NCBI GenBank assembly: GCA_050575255.1
Contig: JBNZDD010013718.1
Location: 7,432,579-7,496,578 of the forward strand
Reading direction: 5' to 3'
Length of the DNA: 64,000 nt
Source: Harriotta raleighana
Taxonomy: Eukaryota
This document shows, piece by piece, positions 8,574 to 19,832 of this stretch. The notes below the pieces were generated by a model. It searched no databases. It had not been told where the DNA came from and saw only the letters and a program-made list of their open reading frames with translations. Made by a program: the position numbers and the translations under genes. The stretch's first letter is position 1; every line of letters begins with the position of its first letter.

Positions 8574-11500
8574 ATGGCCTCAACAAATTATTCTTTCGAT
8601 TATGATATGGAGGACAATTCATATTGGAATATTGAATACTCTAACGAACAAGAAGAAACCCCGCAAGAGTACGTTTGTATTATTCCTTTCGGATCACTTT
8701 CTGTTAAACTTTTTTTTCTTAATGTGTTTTGCATCCATCCGGTAGCTGACTCAGTTTATTACTTTTTTTTCTCTCCCCCCCCCCACNNNNNNNNNNNNNN
8801 NNNNNNNNNNNNNNCCCCCCCCCCCCCCCCCCACCCCCCATAGAATTATTCCGCCTTGTGATCCCACACTACGAGTCGATTTGTATCACATCTGCATGTC
8901 AGGTATTTCAGTAAGTGTCTCTTTATTTATCCCCTGTTAAGTTTAAATGAATGTGTATTTACTTTTTTCCACCCAAGTTGACCATTTGGAAACTAATTTA
9001 ATGGGACTGCAGATCAATATGTTGTGACTCTGAAAGTGAAGTTCAAAATATATATATATATATATACACACATACATATAATCTACGGGATAAGTTTACT
9101 TAAATAAATTTCTGTACTAGATCAATCTGCACATTTCTATGTTTGGTAATTGTGGTGAGTGGGTCGATCATGAAAATATACAGTAAATAAAAAGTGTTCG
9201 CATTTTTCCTTTCAGCTCGCTGTGCTTCTAGCTCTGTCGTTCTTGGTCAAACGCAGGCGTCTGTGCAGGAATTCATGTGGTGGGGCTCCCGGCTTATTAC
9301 AGTTAAGTTCTCCACCGACAGTCTCAAGTTCAAGGCATGAACGCTGGGTGAACTCAAACGGAACCACTGAAAACACCATATAAGGCTCTCGACATCAAAC
9401 CAATGGGTCGCTACACAGGCAGCATTGCGTTACACTGAGCTGCAAATAAGTCTACGCGAGAATGTGTCAAGTTTTACAGAGATTCACTTCATAAATAAGT
9501 CATACCTGTCTGCTCAATCCCCTATCCACAGTCTGATCAAAACCGCTTGCTTTCGATCTGTTGCGCCTGAACTTCATTATCAGGACTGGGCTCTAAGGCT
9601 GTTTAGCACTCGAGTTCCCTGATCACTAATACTGGTCCAGGTGACTTGTTTGGTTGGTTTATCAATGGACAAAAGGGCTTCGTCGCTTGGTGTCTTTGCA
9701 GCCATTCGCCAATTGTTAAAGTCAATGCTAAACAGCCAAACATTCTAGGATTTTACAAAACTGCTGAATGTATTTTACACTTTCAGTCGTTTTATTCAAT
9801 TGCTACTTTTTTCAGGAATTCCTGTTATTGAGTTATGGGAGCTGTCAACGTCTGCNCCCCCCCCCCCCCCAACATGACGATGTCTATTGTCTGAATTAGG
9901 GGAAATAAAAATGTACAGAAGTATTTCCATGTTAACTGCAGCTTTATAAATCACCATTCTACTCAGCACATCTCATTAAAAGTCCCCCCAATTTCCCAAT
10001 ATGGTAGACTAAACAGTAAGTTCAATTGTCTGAGCTTGACTTCCTGAGTTCGTTTCTACTTTGAATATCTTGAACAGTTTAGTGGGTACATTTGCAAATA
10101 TGATTCCAAAATATACACTTACCCTTGGTGATTACTGTCCCTGGGGGATCTGGAGAACATCCTATTCAAACGAAATGTCTTGATCACCAACTTTGGGCTT
10201 GCAATAATGTATTCGGAATTTGTCACTGTAGATGCTGAGTTTAAAAAAGGCAAGCGACTTATTTTTTTTCGAATAGTTTCCGTGAGTGAGTGAGTAAAGG
10301 TTCTTTCTCTTGTTTGTGGAGTGTAACGCGTGCATTTTGTTCTGTTTCAGTCCCGTTGGCCTTTTGGAACATGGCTATCATAAAGGAATTCCTGCAGCTG
10401 TATTTGGACTTGTTTTCTGTTCCCTGTGTTTTGTGATTCTGGATAGCAAACCTTTTCCTTTCATCACTGAACCTTCTGAGAACACCAAAGGTAAACGGAC
10501 CCAACCCATTTTATTGTACTGTATGTCTCGAAATAGAGGTGGGGAACCTTAGATGAAATGAACAGAGGAGTACAATTAAAGGGAGGTAGCTTGGAAGATC
10601 TATTGAAATGATTTATTACAGAATCTCTTAAACCATGGTAGCCAGGTATTTTTAAAATGTCTGACATTTCTTTCAAAGGTGATACTGTTTTACATATGCA
10701 GAGTGTTTTATAAAGTGAAACCAGTTACTACAATTGACCAATTATGACTTTTAAAAAAGGAATTAGGTAAATGCTTGAATGATTACATAGGAATTCATAG
10801 AATAATTGGGTAAAGAAGATTAAATAAGGAATTTGGAGTTAATAAGGGAACTGGCCCAGGTCTGATGGGTCAAATAGGTTCTGGTTAAATTCCTATTGCA
10901 AATTTTGCACATATGACATTTTAGAAATTAAAAATGTTGTAAATACTTTGCAGACTGATCAGAATGTGAATGAGAAAAATGGATTAGATTTCCGTGAGAT
11001 CCTGATGTGGGGAGAATACTGAACTGATTATATTGTAGGATGAGGCATACAGATGGCAATGGAATTTCATTAAGTAGCTGATACCTTTACCAAATACTAA
11101 ATCAGCTTCTTGCTTTCAGAGTATTTGAAGATACTGGCCTTGCTGTATTACCCAGCCATGTACTATCCCCTCCTTGCATGTGCAGCTGTTAAGAGCAAAG
11201 CCGGTTACCTCCTTGGTAGCCTGCTCTCCTGGGTTCACTGCGGAATCCAGATTTGGCACAAGGCTGAATGCCCTTATTCACTGGAGGTAATTTGCTTATG
11301 CGACTTGCTTTTAAAGTTTTAATCTCTAGCTTTTGTTTGTAGCGCTAATTACTAAACAAACAATATTGCTCTTGTTGCAGTTTGATGCCTTTTTTAAAAA
11401 CCTTCTCAACACCCCCAAAGCAGCCTCTCTTTGCGTAACTCACCCCTTTCTCCATTCCCCCCAATTTGGAGTCAAGCTGTGACACTGTTAAATGTCTGAG

Positions 11501-14500
11501 ATGCTACCCTGCTTGGAGGGTGCTAAATAAACACAAGTTGTTGTTAACTCCGTTGAATGATTATTTTAATTCAGAATTTATTTTCTTTAACCTGGATAAC
11601 AATTAAAATACAGTTATCTAGCACAGGCTGCTCGTTAAACATGAACCACAGGAATTGACCTATCTATGCCCAGTGCAGATTGCCAGAACATTTTTTCCCC
11701 CAAAATTCTGCACTGTTGATCTTCTCTTCTCCAACAGTGGCTCCATGTTTGTAACTTTCCCATCAAGAGAACAGGTGGCTCGCTCTCCAGGTCATTGTGT
11801 ATTCATCAATAGTAATCAATGATTAGCCAAGCAGAGCTTTTTTCATCAATGTTTTTTCATCTTGCTTCTTTCTCTGAATCCCCTTCTCCCCAACTAACCA
11901 CAGAATGATCCATAGTTAGGGTGTGCTAGCCTGGCAGATAATTCACTAAATGTAGCATCTGTTCCTAGTGCTTGTTGAACAGTTATCCAGGATGTGTCAT
12001 CTTCTGTGAATTCTTCCTATTTCCATTTGCTTGTTTGATGCTAAAACAGGCCTGATGGCAATGGAATCCAAATTATTAGTGGAAGTTATTATTCCAATGC
12101 AAGAACTGACATTTAAGTGGGCTTTTCCTTTGCTTCTTGGGGGCCCTGTCAGATGTAAGGAAATTAGTTTCTAAAAAGAATAATTGGAAAGTAACTGGGT
12201 GAGCGGGTTTGCAAAAAGGCGATTTATGGTCCATCTAATCCAGGAAAAAGTTTGACTTGATGAATACAGAGAGTCATGCTTCTTAGCTGGGTCAATAGGT
12301 GAGGTATCTTCTGATGTCCTGTCACGGAATGATTTTGACAGCAATTTGGAATGTGCATGGTCCAGGATCACTGTTTTTCTTCCCTCACCCCCACAATCCA
12401 AATGGGGGGGAGGCAGGGGAAGAAATCAAGAGACACTCTGGAAAGGGAAAATCTGATAATTTAACCACTAAATTATTTGTTTTGTAGCATAGTGAAGCTG
12501 CCGCATGCAAAAAGTTGAGGGGGGAACCGTTTCAACTAAAATCATCTGAATGCATAAAATAACACAATTCATTTTTTTATTCAAGGAAAGTAAGTGTTTA
12601 TACTCTTGTTAGTATATTGCAAAACCATTCCAGCTTAATCTGGCGTGACAAGCTTTGAAAGGAATGAAAAACTTTGGAAAATGGATTTTGCATAGTAACC
12701 AGTCTTTTCTTTCATTCTCCAGATATACAAATACTACTCATTGATGAGGAGTCTTCCTCAACTCTTATTTCTGGCATTCCTCAGCTTACTTTATCCATTT
12801 TTATTGGTGAAGAATGATGAGACATCTGGAAAAATTGGCTCAAATGAGGTAAGTGTCAAATTTGATGGCAGTGATTGTAGACTTCAATCAAAGTCAGGCA
12901 CCGATGAAGATGTCTGTTTGTTCACTGGGGTTGGATTAAAAGCTTATTATTTTTGAACTTCCCTAGGTACAATTTTTTAACAACACGGTGGATTTGAATT
13001 GAGTTGGTGATTAAAACAATGTTCATTTAGTAAAATCTCTGACTCACAAACTAACATTGTTGAAATCTTAAATTAAACTTTTAAAATTCTCATCATGATG
13101 TATTGAAATTATTAATGACCACTGCCTGAAAAGATCATGAATGCACAATGCATAATCTAACCTAATGAGGTTTTAGCACCATTTCCCACATTGTTTATAG
13201 TTTAGTAAGAATAGTGTTCATTCAGAAATCTACTATTCCAACTGAGGATAAATGCAGTCCCCGTGTTAATGCATCTTAAATGATTAACTAACTGATTGAC
13301 ATCATTTAGTAGCTGAGGATTTAGATCCTATGTTCTTTGCGTCCTCCATTTCCCTTGTTAGTTGAACTGGTTTTGATGGTTTTATATTGGGTTAATCCTA
13401 CTGTGTTTTCAGTAGCTATCTGGTTTCTCAAAAGGCTCATTCTAATCTCCATACTATTTGCACCAGACTGTCAGAATAATGTTCTTAATTGGTTGGGATA
13501 AAATCTGTTCCTGCATTGTGTGCCTCTCCAAATACAAAGTATTATGTTCAGGGCTCAATAAGGATTTCCATTTATGGTTAAGCAGCCAAGGGACGTGCAT
13601 TTAGTGGAAATTTTGAAAGTTGCTGTGTGTTAGCCTATAGTCATCGTTTATAACAGGAAAGTTTATTTGAATGTTTTCAATCAACCCCTTGAACTCATTG
13701 TTCATCTATATGCTTTTAGAGTAATTCTTTCTCCAAGAATAAACCTTTCCTTTTTTTTAATCCATGGTTGTGCTACATCTGATTTGTCTGTTTTGATTTC
13801 TTCCTCTGCAGTGCCTTTCTAATGCATATTACACCGACTACGTCAAGGTTATGCTGAGAAAGAAACCACCTCCTGGGTAGGATGGTTTTACATTCAGCTG
13901 TTAAATAAATTGCATCCCCAGCCATTTTAAAGTTGTGTATTCCTCTCTCATATTTATGCGATTAACTAAAATGTTCTGCTTTTTTTTTTCTCTCCTCCAT
14001 ACTCAGTGCCGAGCCAGCGCAGGTAAGTATCCCCTCTCGGATAGGAGCGATGATACGATCATACATCTACATACCAGTGGAAGGTAATTCACGTAGCTGA
14101 GGATTCTTATCTATGCTTGATAATAATACAAACTGTGCATACTCAAAAAGAACAATTCTAAATTTGCAAAATGATCAAAGTTTACAAATGGTGGGGGAGG
14201 GGGGGGAACTATATGTTTTGGTCTGCGCCATGGTCATGATCCTTATCCTTGCATTTGATGTCATGTCTTTCCAGATCAGGAGGATGTCTCAAAAGTATCT
14301 CGCATGATTCACAAAAGACTGTATTTTTGTAGGCAAACATGACAGCTGATTTTCACCCACATTGTACCACAAACATTTATCTGCTAATGAACACCTGTTT
14401 GGACAGTAAATCTGATGTTAGCAGAAAAGAGTGTATGAACTTGACTTGAATGATAAATGAAAGAACACAGTTTTCTCTCAGGTCTATGTATTTTTATTGA

Positions 14501-16376
14501 TTAAAAATCAGATCAGGAATGGAGCTATTCCAAAGTCCTTGCTTGGCTTTAAATGGTGTTATTTTTGTGGCATTTCATCCACAAATACTGTATATAGTCA
14601 ATTCGCTTTACAGTGTATTCTGTAAAGTGCTTTCAGACATCTAGAAGATGTGAAAAGTGGTATATCGAATGCAAGGATTATTATTTATTGTTTTTCTTAA
14701 CTTATCTTTTACCACCAGAGAGATTTTGTCAGAGTTTTATTGCAACTAACAATTCTTTTTACATCCTTTTCAGGATTCAGTGCACCAACAAAACTGGTCA
14801 TAACTATGACTGTGGCAATAGTTTCTGTCTATCAGGTAAGCACCTTTAATGATTTTTAAACTAATAACTCATTATTTTATAGCTCATGGGCATCTCCTCA
14901 GCTGTGAATCAGATTACATTTTCAGCACAATTCAGAGGAAACATCCTATAAATATATCGTATTTGGTTAGGGTGAATGTCCAAAGTGATGGGTATTTGTT
15001 AGATATTGCTTCATTGCTACAAGCATGCAGATAAATGTATGCAAAGCTGCTGATATTAATGGATTTATGAATAAGATGATTCTTCATTATTTTAGAATTA
15101 ATTACTTAAATAAAATGGGTTGTATATCTAGGGATGCTTTACACAAACATTTATGTATAAAATGGCCTCCCCACCTGAAAGGTGCTCTATAAATCTATAT
15201 ACAATATATATTTATATTATATTGCTAATGTTATCTTCTTCTACATTTCCTGCAGGTTGCTGTTCTAATTATTGTGAGTGTTTTACCCACTCTGCAGAAG
15301 GTACGGTTAGGAGTCCAAGAAGATATCTCCTACCTACTTGATGAATTTCATGTTAGCCTATCCCCAAATAGGGCTGAAGTTGTCACTATTGTCAAGTACC
15401 TATTTTGGGTGGTTGAAGGTACTCACTTAGTTGTTTGTTATAATAATATTTGATATAGTGCCTTATCACATTGTTGAGATGTCTCAATGTGCTTTATAGA
15501 ATATGTTAGAAAGCAAATTGATTGCGTACTTTTGTGGGAGAAATGTGGCAGCCAATTGCACAGCAGAAATTTGAATATTGTAAATAACTTTCATTTTGAT
15601 CTCATTTTTCTGAGTGTTTCCGTCACAAATGAGTCTTGGAACAAGTTTATAGTATATAGTTTATATGAGGCAAGGGAAAGCCATTGGCCCATTTATTTCT
15701 AGTGTAATAATGGGGATATCTGGATGTTTATGACCACATCAATGCATTGGTCTTCACTTAATCCTGGAATACAGTGGTTAAACCAAGGTTGTGATTAAAA
15801 GGCAAGGGCTTGTTTTTTTGTGGTGTTTTATCACGTCAAATGTTCACAATAATTGATGTTGAATGCAATAATTATTTTCTAGCCAGGTGCAGTAACCATT
15901 TGGGGCTATAATAATGGACAAAATATGTAGAAAATATGATGTATAATATCTGATTAAAACATGGAAGTTTTTTTTCTTCTTTTTCCAACAGTCTGCTATC
16001 TGTCTGCTGTGGCTGTTTCCTGTGTTGTAACTCTTCTTACATTAATGAGGTCAATGGTTTTACACAGGTAATTTTTAAAATCAATTCAGAGGTCATTCCT
16101 CCCAAGGGTAATGTACTTGGATATGTAAACTGCCCTGTGATCAATTTTAAACACATTGAGAATGGAGGCAGCAAATGTGACTTGATGTATAATATAATGG
16201 TTCAATGTGATGCTTTTAGAAGTATTTGAGCTTGTCAGTGTTTGGAAAATGCATCACATTTTTTCCTTTTTGAATTGTAAGTTATTATTAGTGTTGTGTG
16301 ATTGTGCACCAGTTTTCAACCTTGACATTGACAAAGAAATGGTCCCTGTTCTATTTAAATACTTACTGTACTGTCG

Positions 16377-16414
<38 letters not shown>

Positions 16415-19400
16415 CACTGCTTACATAATCCTAGCAATATGTATCCAAGCAAGCATGAAATTACATTTTGTTCATTACAGAGACAACCTCAGGGCTCTCT
16501 ACAGAGGCGACACTCAAAGAGTCTTCAACTGTATAAGGCATATTAAACCCTCGAGATCCAGCATTGCCTCCTGGATGTGTTTCACTGGCTACCAGGCTGC
16601 CCATGTCTGTTTAGGTAACTAATTGTGGACACTCTGATTAATGGAATGAATTCTGTAGTTGATGAACTTTAACTAAGACAAGTTGTAACCTTTTGCTTAT
16701 TTTCGTTACCTCCCCACACACACACACACTCACAGACAGACAGACAGACAGACTGTCACTGTCTGAAGTATACAATCATGTTTTCTGTCTCCCTCCTGAA
16801 TTATTTTTATTTTAAATAGTTAAGATTTAAATCTTATTGAATATTTCACTCAGATTTAAAATTCTGAAAAATAATAGTTACTGAATTTTTATTGCAGCAA
16901 ATTTTAAGGTGTGTCTGCTTGTGTATTTTTAAATATAAAATGTGATTACATTCCAGATTCCATCAGCTTGCTTATTCTAAATGCTTTTGATTTAACAGTG
17001 CCTGCATTTCCTATTAGAACTATTTGTTACTTAATTTAAATAGCTTTAGCATACAATCTATTTACTAGTTTATGCTATTTTCTTAATTCATTTCAGTCAT
17101 GACCTTCTGGGAAGTACTAAAGGTAAATGCATGTTCATCATAGAGTGGGGAGTGCCTTATTTGCCTTGCAATGCCTAATTTTCAATAAGATGTTGTTTGG
17201 TGAAATATTGACCAATGCATTGATGTGGTCATATACACCCAGATATCCCCATTATTACACTAGAAATAAATGGGCCAATGGCTTTCCCTTGCCTCATATG
17301 ACAATAAACTTGTTCCAAGACTCATTTGTGATGGAAACACTCAGAAAAATGAGATCAAAATGAAAGTTATTTACAAAAACCTCAATATTCACATTTCTGC
17401 TGTGCAATTGGCTTCTAAATTAAATCTAGTTGTGAACCTTATTCTTTGCATTGCTCCTTTTTTTGAAGGGCTCATCATTCAACAGATAGTGATCTTTATT
17501 TGTTTCCTGCTATTTGCCTTTCTCATCGTTATTCCCATTCTGACTGGCCAAAACATGATCATCTTCCATATACTGGAGAAAATGTGGTGAGTAATGTTAC
17601 TTACTGGAGAGCGAGGATTAAGATATCAAATGGAAATTCTTGATCTATTGTTACATGGGGAGTATTGTGATGCATATTTGTTTTCTCTCATTTTTTTATA
17701 GGCCGTTCTGGTTAATGCTAATTCTGGTAGTCTTACTCCAACATGTATTGGCTCGTTTCATTTTCCTTCAGAAAAATGGAGAAACATTCAGTGTCACAAA
17801 TAGGTATGGAATGAAACAACAAAATTACACTTGTATAGTGTTTTTCACATCAGGAAGACGTCCCAAGGCACTGGGCAATCATTGTTTCAGACCCAAGCTG
17901 GGGATGGGGAGGATGGAGGGAAAGGGGAGGATTTGGTGTGACCGATGGGACTGTCGAAGAGGATAAGTATTTTATTGTATATTTGAAAGCTGAATAGGAA
18001 ATTTTACTCCAAATGGTTGTGTGCATCTGGAATATTTCACAATGCATTTCAATTTTTCTGTTCTTCTTAGACGAATACTCTACATCTTCACCTACCTTCT
18101 ATTCACATTCAATGTGCTGATAGGAGTTATTGCTGCGGTTTGGCGATTGGTTCTCACTGCACTCTTCAATGTCATCCATTTCTGTCGACTGGACCTTGGG
18201 CTGCTCAATCGTGGGGTTGAGATGTTTGACCCAGGTAACGCTATAGACTCTACCATAAGTGTTCTGTTTTATGATGGATTTCTAATACTTCAGTAAATAG
18301 TCAGGATCCTCTGCAATAAAACAGGGGAAAAGATGTTGGGAAAAAAACATCTGTACAAAATGTACAAAATGCTTTTGACTTACATAGGAAATGGGTAGAA
18401 AGAGCTAACACTAATACAACAAATTATATGACCTCCAACTGTGTAATTTCCATGGGAAATTATAACTAATGGGATTTTATTAGTTTTATCCCATTTTGTG
18501 ACTGTACAGAATCCATTGTGCACATGTGTTTTACCACTCTATGAATGGTGTAACTTGATCTGAGGCTACTGGAGATCCTGTCCTTGAACTGACCAACCAT
18601 TAGGAAATTTGTAAATGCTCCTGAGGAGGACTTATGATTTGTCCGGTTACTTCCCCCATCCCCCACCCCTCCCATTGCAATTCCTGCGTGAAAGTGCCTA
18701 TGCCGTCCATCTGATTAGTTTCCCCTTTTTTTCCGACATCTTTTCCCCACCTACCCTGCAAACATTTTGGTCGCTGGGAAGGTCAAGAAATATAAAAATG
18801 ATCAATTTCTTGAAATAGTACTTTTTATGTTGGCTGGTCACCTGCAAATGTTTCACAAGATTTACTGTAAAGTATAGTGACTATGTTGTAGGATGTTAAG
18901 AGTTATCAACAGTTAATACTTTCCTCCCCCAGGTTACTATTCTTACATCAATTTCCTCACGATTGAAGTCAGCCAATCACATCCAGTGATGAAAGCTTTT
19001 TGCTCTCTTCTGCTTCATTCCCGAAGCTCTGAGCGAAGTGTTGGACATCAGAGTAAAGATGTGGAGGAAGGTTAGCTATGCTAAAATGGAGGACAAAGGC
19101 TGGAAATATAATGAAGAAACTGAATCCTCATCTCCTACTTTAAAGTTTCCATGGCACTATGTTTCTCTCAGTGACCTGTCCTACAGTTTTCACCCCTACC
19201 CACCCACGATAGAATTGTTCATTCCTTCATGACTGTTTGAGGGAAGTTTGCTGTGTTCAAATTGGCATCTGCATTTTCCTACAAAATATACAATCTCTTA
19301 ATTTCACAATAAATTCTGCAAAGCACTATGTCGCATGATGGCATTAGGATTATAAAGTGCATCCTGTTTCCTTGTAATCCACTCACTTAGAGTTACTTTT

Positions 19401-19832
19401 TTTTTCCTTTGCACATAATGCCACTTTCTAGCATTTCGTAATGTAAGTAAATTGAACCAATATCTTAAAAAGGCAACATGTCTCAATCCTGTTATTATAT
19501 TATTCCAGAACTGGGTGGGGGGAATGTTCATGAACTGCATTTGTGAAGAGCAAACATTATGTCTGATCATGATCTAATTGTGGATTTTTTCACCACTTCC
19601 AGGGATTCAACTGATGCAAACTGATCAAAAATGTACAAAAGCAGCCAGATCCAAACGGGCAAGAGCAAAGTGGTGCTTACTGCTCACTCTATTGAACAAT
19701 CCTTCACTGGTCGAAGCCAGAAGATCCTTTGGTCACTTGTCAACAGATATGGTCTTGAATGGAAAATTGAGCCTCTCACCCAAGGACAGCAAAGATGAAC
19801 TTGATAAACCTGAGACATGTGAAAGTGAATAG
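8574..19832 (+). CDS. STRA6: Receptor for retinol uptake STRA6 (multi-pass membrane protein), 17 coding exons, 669 aa
   Basis: Coding exons with GT-AG junctions and matching phases: 8574-8668, 8844-8910, 9216-9301, 10351-10490, 11120-11286, 12723-12848, 13812-13876, 14007-14083, 14774-14835, 15256-15418, 15992-16067, 16481-16614, 17469-17586, 17702-17803, 18071-18234, 18933-19070, 19603-19832 (2010 nt including TAG). The translation carries STRA6 motifs: PAAVF, YYPxx[56 protein letters not shown], RARxxW..TLLNNPSL. Confidence 0.97.

Follow-up and report, generated by a model that had tools for sequence, protein, structure and literature searches.

The route from RBP4 through STRA6 to RBP1 and LRAT has been described in other vertebrates (available portions of PMC8620617 and PMC12225734), and zebrafish STRA6 supports ocular retinoid supply (PMC12225734, same portion). 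In the mammalian receptor, mutagenesis has named Tyr336, Gly340, and Gly342, residues that are highly conserved among mammals (accessible text of PMC9992173), and according to the accessible text of PMC4584289, which also has STRA6 contacting the retinol-exit end of RBP, changing a single one of three residues is enough to abolish both RBP binding and uptake. The distant paralogue RBPR2/STRA6L, with about 22% identity to zebrafish STRA6, is reported to bind RBP4 via a Ser-Tyr-Leu motif (PMC9992173, same text). A sequence-only reading of the DNA analyzed here, a window of 64,000 nucleotides from the chimaera Harriotta raleighana, had stated that the Tyr and both Gly of the mammalian loop are needed for RBP4 binding. 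This agrees with the literature, the need being stated in PMC9992173 and, without residue numbers, in PMC4584289 (both in part), and the mammalian loop as given there matches the orangutan record P0145 letter for letter.

The RBP-binding domain of mammalian STRA6 occupies the same place between two transmembrane (TM) helices as the Harriotta loop. The latter keeps the mammalian Tyr, Leu-Leu, Phe, and Leu-Ser, as well as the equivalents of L338, F341, and L345, while G340 is replaced by Glu, G342 by His, and A339 by Asp. Zebrafish STRA6 (structure 5SY1), with F-G-N at the three sites, resembles Harriotta in lacking the mammalian G342 but differs in lacking Y336 and in keeping G340 and A339, where Harriotta has Glu and Asp. 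The Ser-Tyr-Leu triplet of RBPR2/STRA6L is intact in Harriotta STRA6.

The STRA6 gene of Harriotta and its binding loop

On the gene model of Table 1, the locus is an intact STRA6 orthologue of a chimaera-type fish. All 16 introns are GT-AG, there are no internal stops, and 594 of 666 aligned positions (89%) are identical to Callorhinchus STRA6; identity is 65% to sharks and 51% to platypus, within the 50 to 65% found against true STRA6 proteins. In a tree of 24 sequences, with no vertebrate STRA6L among them, the protein grouped with the other holocephalans, their sister group being the elasmobranchs, and both the holocephalan and the chondrichthyan clades were supported. A search of the genome with the RBP_receptor Pfam family gave 11 exon matches, all at the STRA6 locus and hence none to a second family member, although short divergent exons can escape such a search, and no vertebrate STRA6L was recognized among 139 representatives. 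The downstream leucine-rich repeat (LRR) plus Ig gene is presumably ISLR or ISLR2, human STRA6 lying likewise tail to tail with ISLR. Among the best 120 of 541 homologues, 2 of 107 columns conserved at ≥98%, and 13 of 194 conserved at ≥90%, are changed in both Harriotta and Callorhinchus. Since the gene is intact and changes at conserved columns are few, STRA6 is evidently under constraint.

Table 1. Features of the STRA6 locus (positions in the window)
Feature	Position	Strand	Remarks
STRA6 coding span, 17 exons, 669 aa	8574..19832	+	Callorhinchus STRA6 as guide
STRA6 exons 1-6	8574-8668, 8844-8910, 9216-9301, 10351-10490, 11120-11286, 12723-12848	+	
STRA6 exons 7-12	13812-13876, 14007-14083, 14774-14835, 15256-15418, 15992-16067, 16481-16614	+	
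STRA6 exons 13-17	17469-17586, 17702-17803, 18071-18234, 18933-19070, 19603-19832	+	
STRA6 coding exon 10	15256..15418	+	TM helix end, extracellular RBP-binding lid, next helix start
Predicted short lid helix, aa 318-325	15322..15345	+	Ends at Glu replacing G340; mapped by alignment from the Callorhinchus AlphaFold2 helix
Tyr codon TAC, mammalian Y336 equivalent	15331..15333	+	Kept
Asp codon GAT, position 339	15340..15342	+	Conservative vs shark/ray Glu
Glu codon GAA at G340	15343..15345	+	Truly unusual change; common to 3/3 holocephalan sequences
Phe codon TTT	15346-48	+	
His codon CAT at G342	15349..15351	+	Position freely variable in ray-finned fishes
Single-exon LRR+Ig gene, 657 codons, intact	25211-27184	-	Downstream, tail to tail with STRA6

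The loop lies in exon 10, which is flanked by CAG and GT, matches RBP_receptor (PF14752; E value of 4.8e-12, 45.8 bits against a curated cutoff of 25), aligns without gaps to residues 290 to 342 of zebrafish STRA6 5SY1, and has a single match in the Harriotta genome. Positions 15322 to 15372 translate into 17 residues, the putative RBP-binding loop, with Y-E-H at the mammalian triad sites in place of Y336/G340/G342. The sequence-only reading of this loop, including its Tyr, Glu, and His codons, proved exact on translation, and its description of a DEFH core in an otherwise intact gene holds as well, the 669-codon frame being open and the same core being present in Callorhinchus. Within the same exon there is an in-frame alternative splice acceptor at 15298, use of which would shorten the preceding TM helix by 14 residues, exactly the gap seen in another holocephalan sequence (P0003).

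For the structural context we relied on an AlphaFold2 model of Callorhinchus STRA6 (pLDDT of 75), which has the STRA6 fold (TM-score of 0.82 to 5SY1, the only entry returned by our structure searches, which gave no STRA6-RBP4 complex). In this model, a short lid helix (residues 315 to 322, local pLDDT of about 89 to 91) ends on the Glu found in place of G340. Glycines at the ends of helices commonly serve as caps. The model suggests that G340 is mainly a helix-ending residue and not an irreplaceable contact, with a role in shape that other residues could fill. A complex prediction with two copies of Callorhinchus STRA6 (residues 272 to 560) and RBP4 (23 to 198) scored 0.00 against a mark of 0.34, in a run for which controls were not folded, and favors neither side.

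Loop residues in holocephalans and other vertebrates

Callorhinchus milii STRA6 (UniRef V9KBE9; P0002) has the same YLLDEFH core as Harriotta, the two loops differing at two residues (Ile for Val and Pro for Gln), and the third holocephalan sequence, P0003, reads DEFR. Harriotta shares 15 of its 17 loop residues with each of these relatives. As the loop is common to Callorhinchus and the third holocephalan, it is a lineage trait and not an error. The holocephalan variant itself is already public through the Callorhinchus records, for which the literature searched yielded no functional study of STRA6. Our search, with most subscription journals outside its reach, found no treatment of the loop for cartilaginous fishes: the Callorhinchus sequence is used in PMC4177561, whose available portion does not discuss the loop, and the available portions of PMC8595884, PMC3815300, and PMC3546623 hold nothing on a holocephalan loop. 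A literature search for STRA6 with G339S gave no match.

To place these changes, residues were counted in an alignment of the best 120 of 541 homologues, after removal of the isoform duplicates P0001 and P0021, to which we added 17 lamprey, hagfish, mammal, snake, bird, and fish sequences picked by hand out of 150 representatives together with the members of their clusters. Among the 101 ray-finned fishes in the best 120 of 541, the Y336 column holds N in 47, F in 42, Y in 10, and K in 2, and the G342 column K in 41, N in 39, R in 13, Q in 6, and G in 2, while all 15 elasmobranchs in that set have Tyr and Gly, respectively. The full Y-G-G is consequently present in 15 of 15 elasmobranchs and in 2 of the 101 ray-finned fishes, the remaining 99 departing from it (best 120 of 541). 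These counts indicate that the Y336/G340/G342 triad is a description of mammals and elasmobranchs, not of the STRA6 family. Its “essential” status rests on mammalian mutagenesis, and the comparison shows that it is not universal. With Y-G-G in every elasmobranch of the best 120 of 541, the loss of both glycines falls on the holocephalan stem. At position 339, Glu is found in 14 of the 15 elasmobranchs (best 120 of 541), which makes the Asp of Harriotta conservative.

G340 behaves differently, being Gly in every one of the 15 elasmobranchs and in all but 2 of the 101 ray-finned fishes (114 of 116 fishes; best 120 of 541), so that one surprising change remains. None of the 133 non-holocephalan sequences compared (best 120 of 541 plus those added) has Glu at this site, which it occupies in all three holocephalans. 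Within the best 120 of 541, the pair G340E with G342H or G342R occurs in 3 of 3 holocephalan sequences and 0 of 15 elasmobranchs, G340E is one of the two changes among the 107 columns conserved at ≥98%, and, of 12 conserved glycines, G340 alone is lost in Harriotta. From these comparisons, G340E is the real anomaly of the loop and is lineage specific. Other properties are unexceptional: the 25-residue lid segment carries a net charge (-2/-3) within the range of other fishes, and the divergence of the 17-residue loop from elasmobranchs lies at the 82nd percentile of windows, which is not an outlier (both measured against the best 120 of 541). The statement that both essential glycines are gone was therefore overstated, the loss of G340 being lineage specific and G342 being free in ray-finned fishes. 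Likewise, variation in non-mammalian STRA6, which the same reading had held to speak against its case, is found at Y336 and G342 but not, in fishes, at G340 (114 of 116 Gly; best 120 of 541).

Outside fishes the glycine is less constant. It is Gln in the three snake and four bird STRA6 sequences inspected (P0122, P0278, P0281, P0127, P0130, P0131, and P0174) and Ser in hagfish, as it is in 2 of the 101 ray-finned fishes, the opah and a sucker (best 120 of 541). According to the tree, the snake, bird, hagfish, opah, and sucker losses are independent of the holocephalan change. Counted on these sequences, G340 has been replaced independently at least five times (holocephalans; snakes/birds; hagfish, opah, and sucker). 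The snake and bird sample is small, made up of 50%-identity representatives and cluster members, biased toward divergent proteins and with partly poor gene models; chicken, turtles, crocodilians, lizards, and amphibians lie outside the comparison. These receptors resemble that of Harriotta in having lost G340 independently but differ in having Gln there, in keeping G342, in the replacement of Y336, which Harriotta keeps, by Ala or Val, and in an insertion of five to six residues after the loop. Without Y336 and G340, and with the insertion, they depart more from the mammalian motif than the chimaera does.

RBP4 and readings of the altered loop

A lipocalin search together with synteny located RBP4 at G000:C13726:7242047-7245120, adjoining FRA10AC1 and a PDE6C remnant. 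The gene is intact, with five coding exons, GT-AG introns, and a product of 198 amino acids that has six Cys in the mature chain and is identical to Callorhinchus RBP4 at 168 of 198 positions; its signal peptide was assigned by visual inspection and by resemblance to that of Callorhinchus. A paralogue at G000:C13480 (about 571096 to 576471), with four recognizable exons, is what we take to be a purpurin-like gene. RBP1-like and LRAT-like exons, named in part through Pfam, are also in the genome. The single match to the transthyretin family presumably represents a HIU hydrolase, which it resembles by its motifs. The proposed check for RBP4 and purpurin in this genome thus returned an intact, syntenic RBP4 and a purpurin-like gene.

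Compared with mammals, Harriotta RBP4 keeps F36, L63, W67, L97, and Q98 and differs at D31, G34, L35, D68, A71, D72, W91, and S95, among others, sites that fall within the retinol-exit loops or close to them. Hagfish RBP4 likewise has Arg91, a basic residue at 76, and Tyr96, so that these, though compensatory looking, are probably old, while Ser31, Ala/Ser34, and Val71 of holocephalan RBP4 differ from hagfish and mammals alike. The comparison set consisted of mammals together with Callorhinchus and hagfish, the two listed of three candidates from a protein search. It gives no shark RBP4 by which to assign the changes to the holocephalan stem, and co-evolution amounts to no more than a lead. 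The suggestion of a divergent RBP4 is compatible with these data, insofar as RBP4 is intact and several of its loop residues are unlike the mammalian ones. We also considered charge complementarity between an acidic lid and a basic RBP4, which was rejected, the lid charge being ordinary and Arg91 and the basic residue at 76 being shared with hagfish. The hagfish RBP4-like sequence P0272 has Arg at position 91 as holocephalans do, which suggests that it is the mammalian Trp91 that is derived.

Our preferred reading, to which we give a probability of about two in three, is that the binding lid of Harriotta STRA6 has been reshaped but that the receptor is otherwise ordinary and continues to serve its own RBP4 despite G340E. 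Holo-RBP4 would dock at the lid of a STRA6 dimer, from which retinol would pass into the cell to RBP1 and LRAT; G340E and G342H would have become fixed in the stem lineage of holocephalans, with the lid or the retinol-exit loops of RBP4 adjusting to them. That RBP4 changed in step with STRA6, as true compensation, is a tentative idea that we would sooner doubt than accept. With RBP4 intact and the purpurin-like gene and the RBP1-like and LRAT-like exons present, nothing suggests that the RBP4 route was abandoned, and because RBP4 is intact in Harriotta and this glycine is also gone from the snake and bird receptors inspected, uptake from RBP4 is likely retained. Mammalian mutagenesis gives the effect of one substitution in a mammalian background, not evolutionary tolerance. 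Overall, the comparisons favor an ordinary, retuned interface over a new vitamin A route. The receptor-ligand pairs of chimaeras, snakes, and birds are natural variants with which the STRA6-RBP4 interface could be mapped by cross-species swaps.

RBP4-independent uptake and a switch to purpurin, taken together, seem unlikely to us, and we find it quite unlikely that holocephalan STRA6 has stopped serving plasma RBP4 and draws on a purpurin-like lipocalin for its retinol, or takes retinol up free or bound to lipoproteins. Were binding to RBP4 lost, a whole vertebrate subclass would use a different vitamin A route, and a jawed-vertebrate lineage would have rewired vitamin A delivery to the eye. 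One version holds that G340E weakened or ended RBP4 binding, so that STRA6 would chiefly be a channel for retinol that is free or carried by lipoproteins, and RBP4 would persist because of other receptors or functions. The change is indeed a radical one at the most conserved glycine of the loop in a protein that is otherwise conserved (best 120 of 541), and mammalian point mutants lose RBP binding (PMC4584289, accessible text); however, the RBP4 gene is intact and its product well conserved from one holocephalan to another, Y336 and its flanking L338, F341, and L345 equivalents are kept, and the loop is conserved, not drifting, within holocephalans and no outlier in its divergence from elasmobranchs (82nd percentile, best 120 of 541), all of which makes this version improbable.

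Retuning of the lid to another lipocalin, for which the purpurin-like paralogue, as a carrier delivering retinol in the eye, is the most plausible choice, is very improbable. Although that gene is there with its four exons, its presence alone ties it to nothing, and the literature searched gave no match joining STRA6, purpurin, and retinol. Purpurin is not restricted to chimaeras. The earlier suggestions of another carrier, or of function without RBP, accordingly found no positive support. Scarcely credible, finally, is a loop produced by decay or sequence error (pseudogene, relaxed selection, or misassembly). The broken PDE6C-like cone gene beside RBP4 indicates that some eye genes are decaying, but the STRA6 frame is open with canonical splice sites, the same Glu appears in two independent holocephalan records, and very few conserved columns are changed (best 120 of 541), so this account is already largely refuted.

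Neighborhood of RBP4

Beyond RBP4 (G000:C13726, 7245000 to 7261000), exons that we take to be CEP55-like lie within about 13 kb. Between them and RBP4, in a region that is partly N, there was no long FFAR4-like frame. On the other side, between FRA10AC1 and RBP4, the PDE6C-like gene (about 7235000 to 7237300, minus strand) is broken: its first exon lacks an in-frame start, carries small deletions, and loses the frame close to its end, and a catalytic-domain exon is only about 2 kb away from it. Callorhinchus is reported to retain pde6c and the little skate to have a pseudogene (bioRxiv 10.1101/2025.07.30.667746, available portion). The loss of the PDE6C-like gene in this chimaera may be independent.
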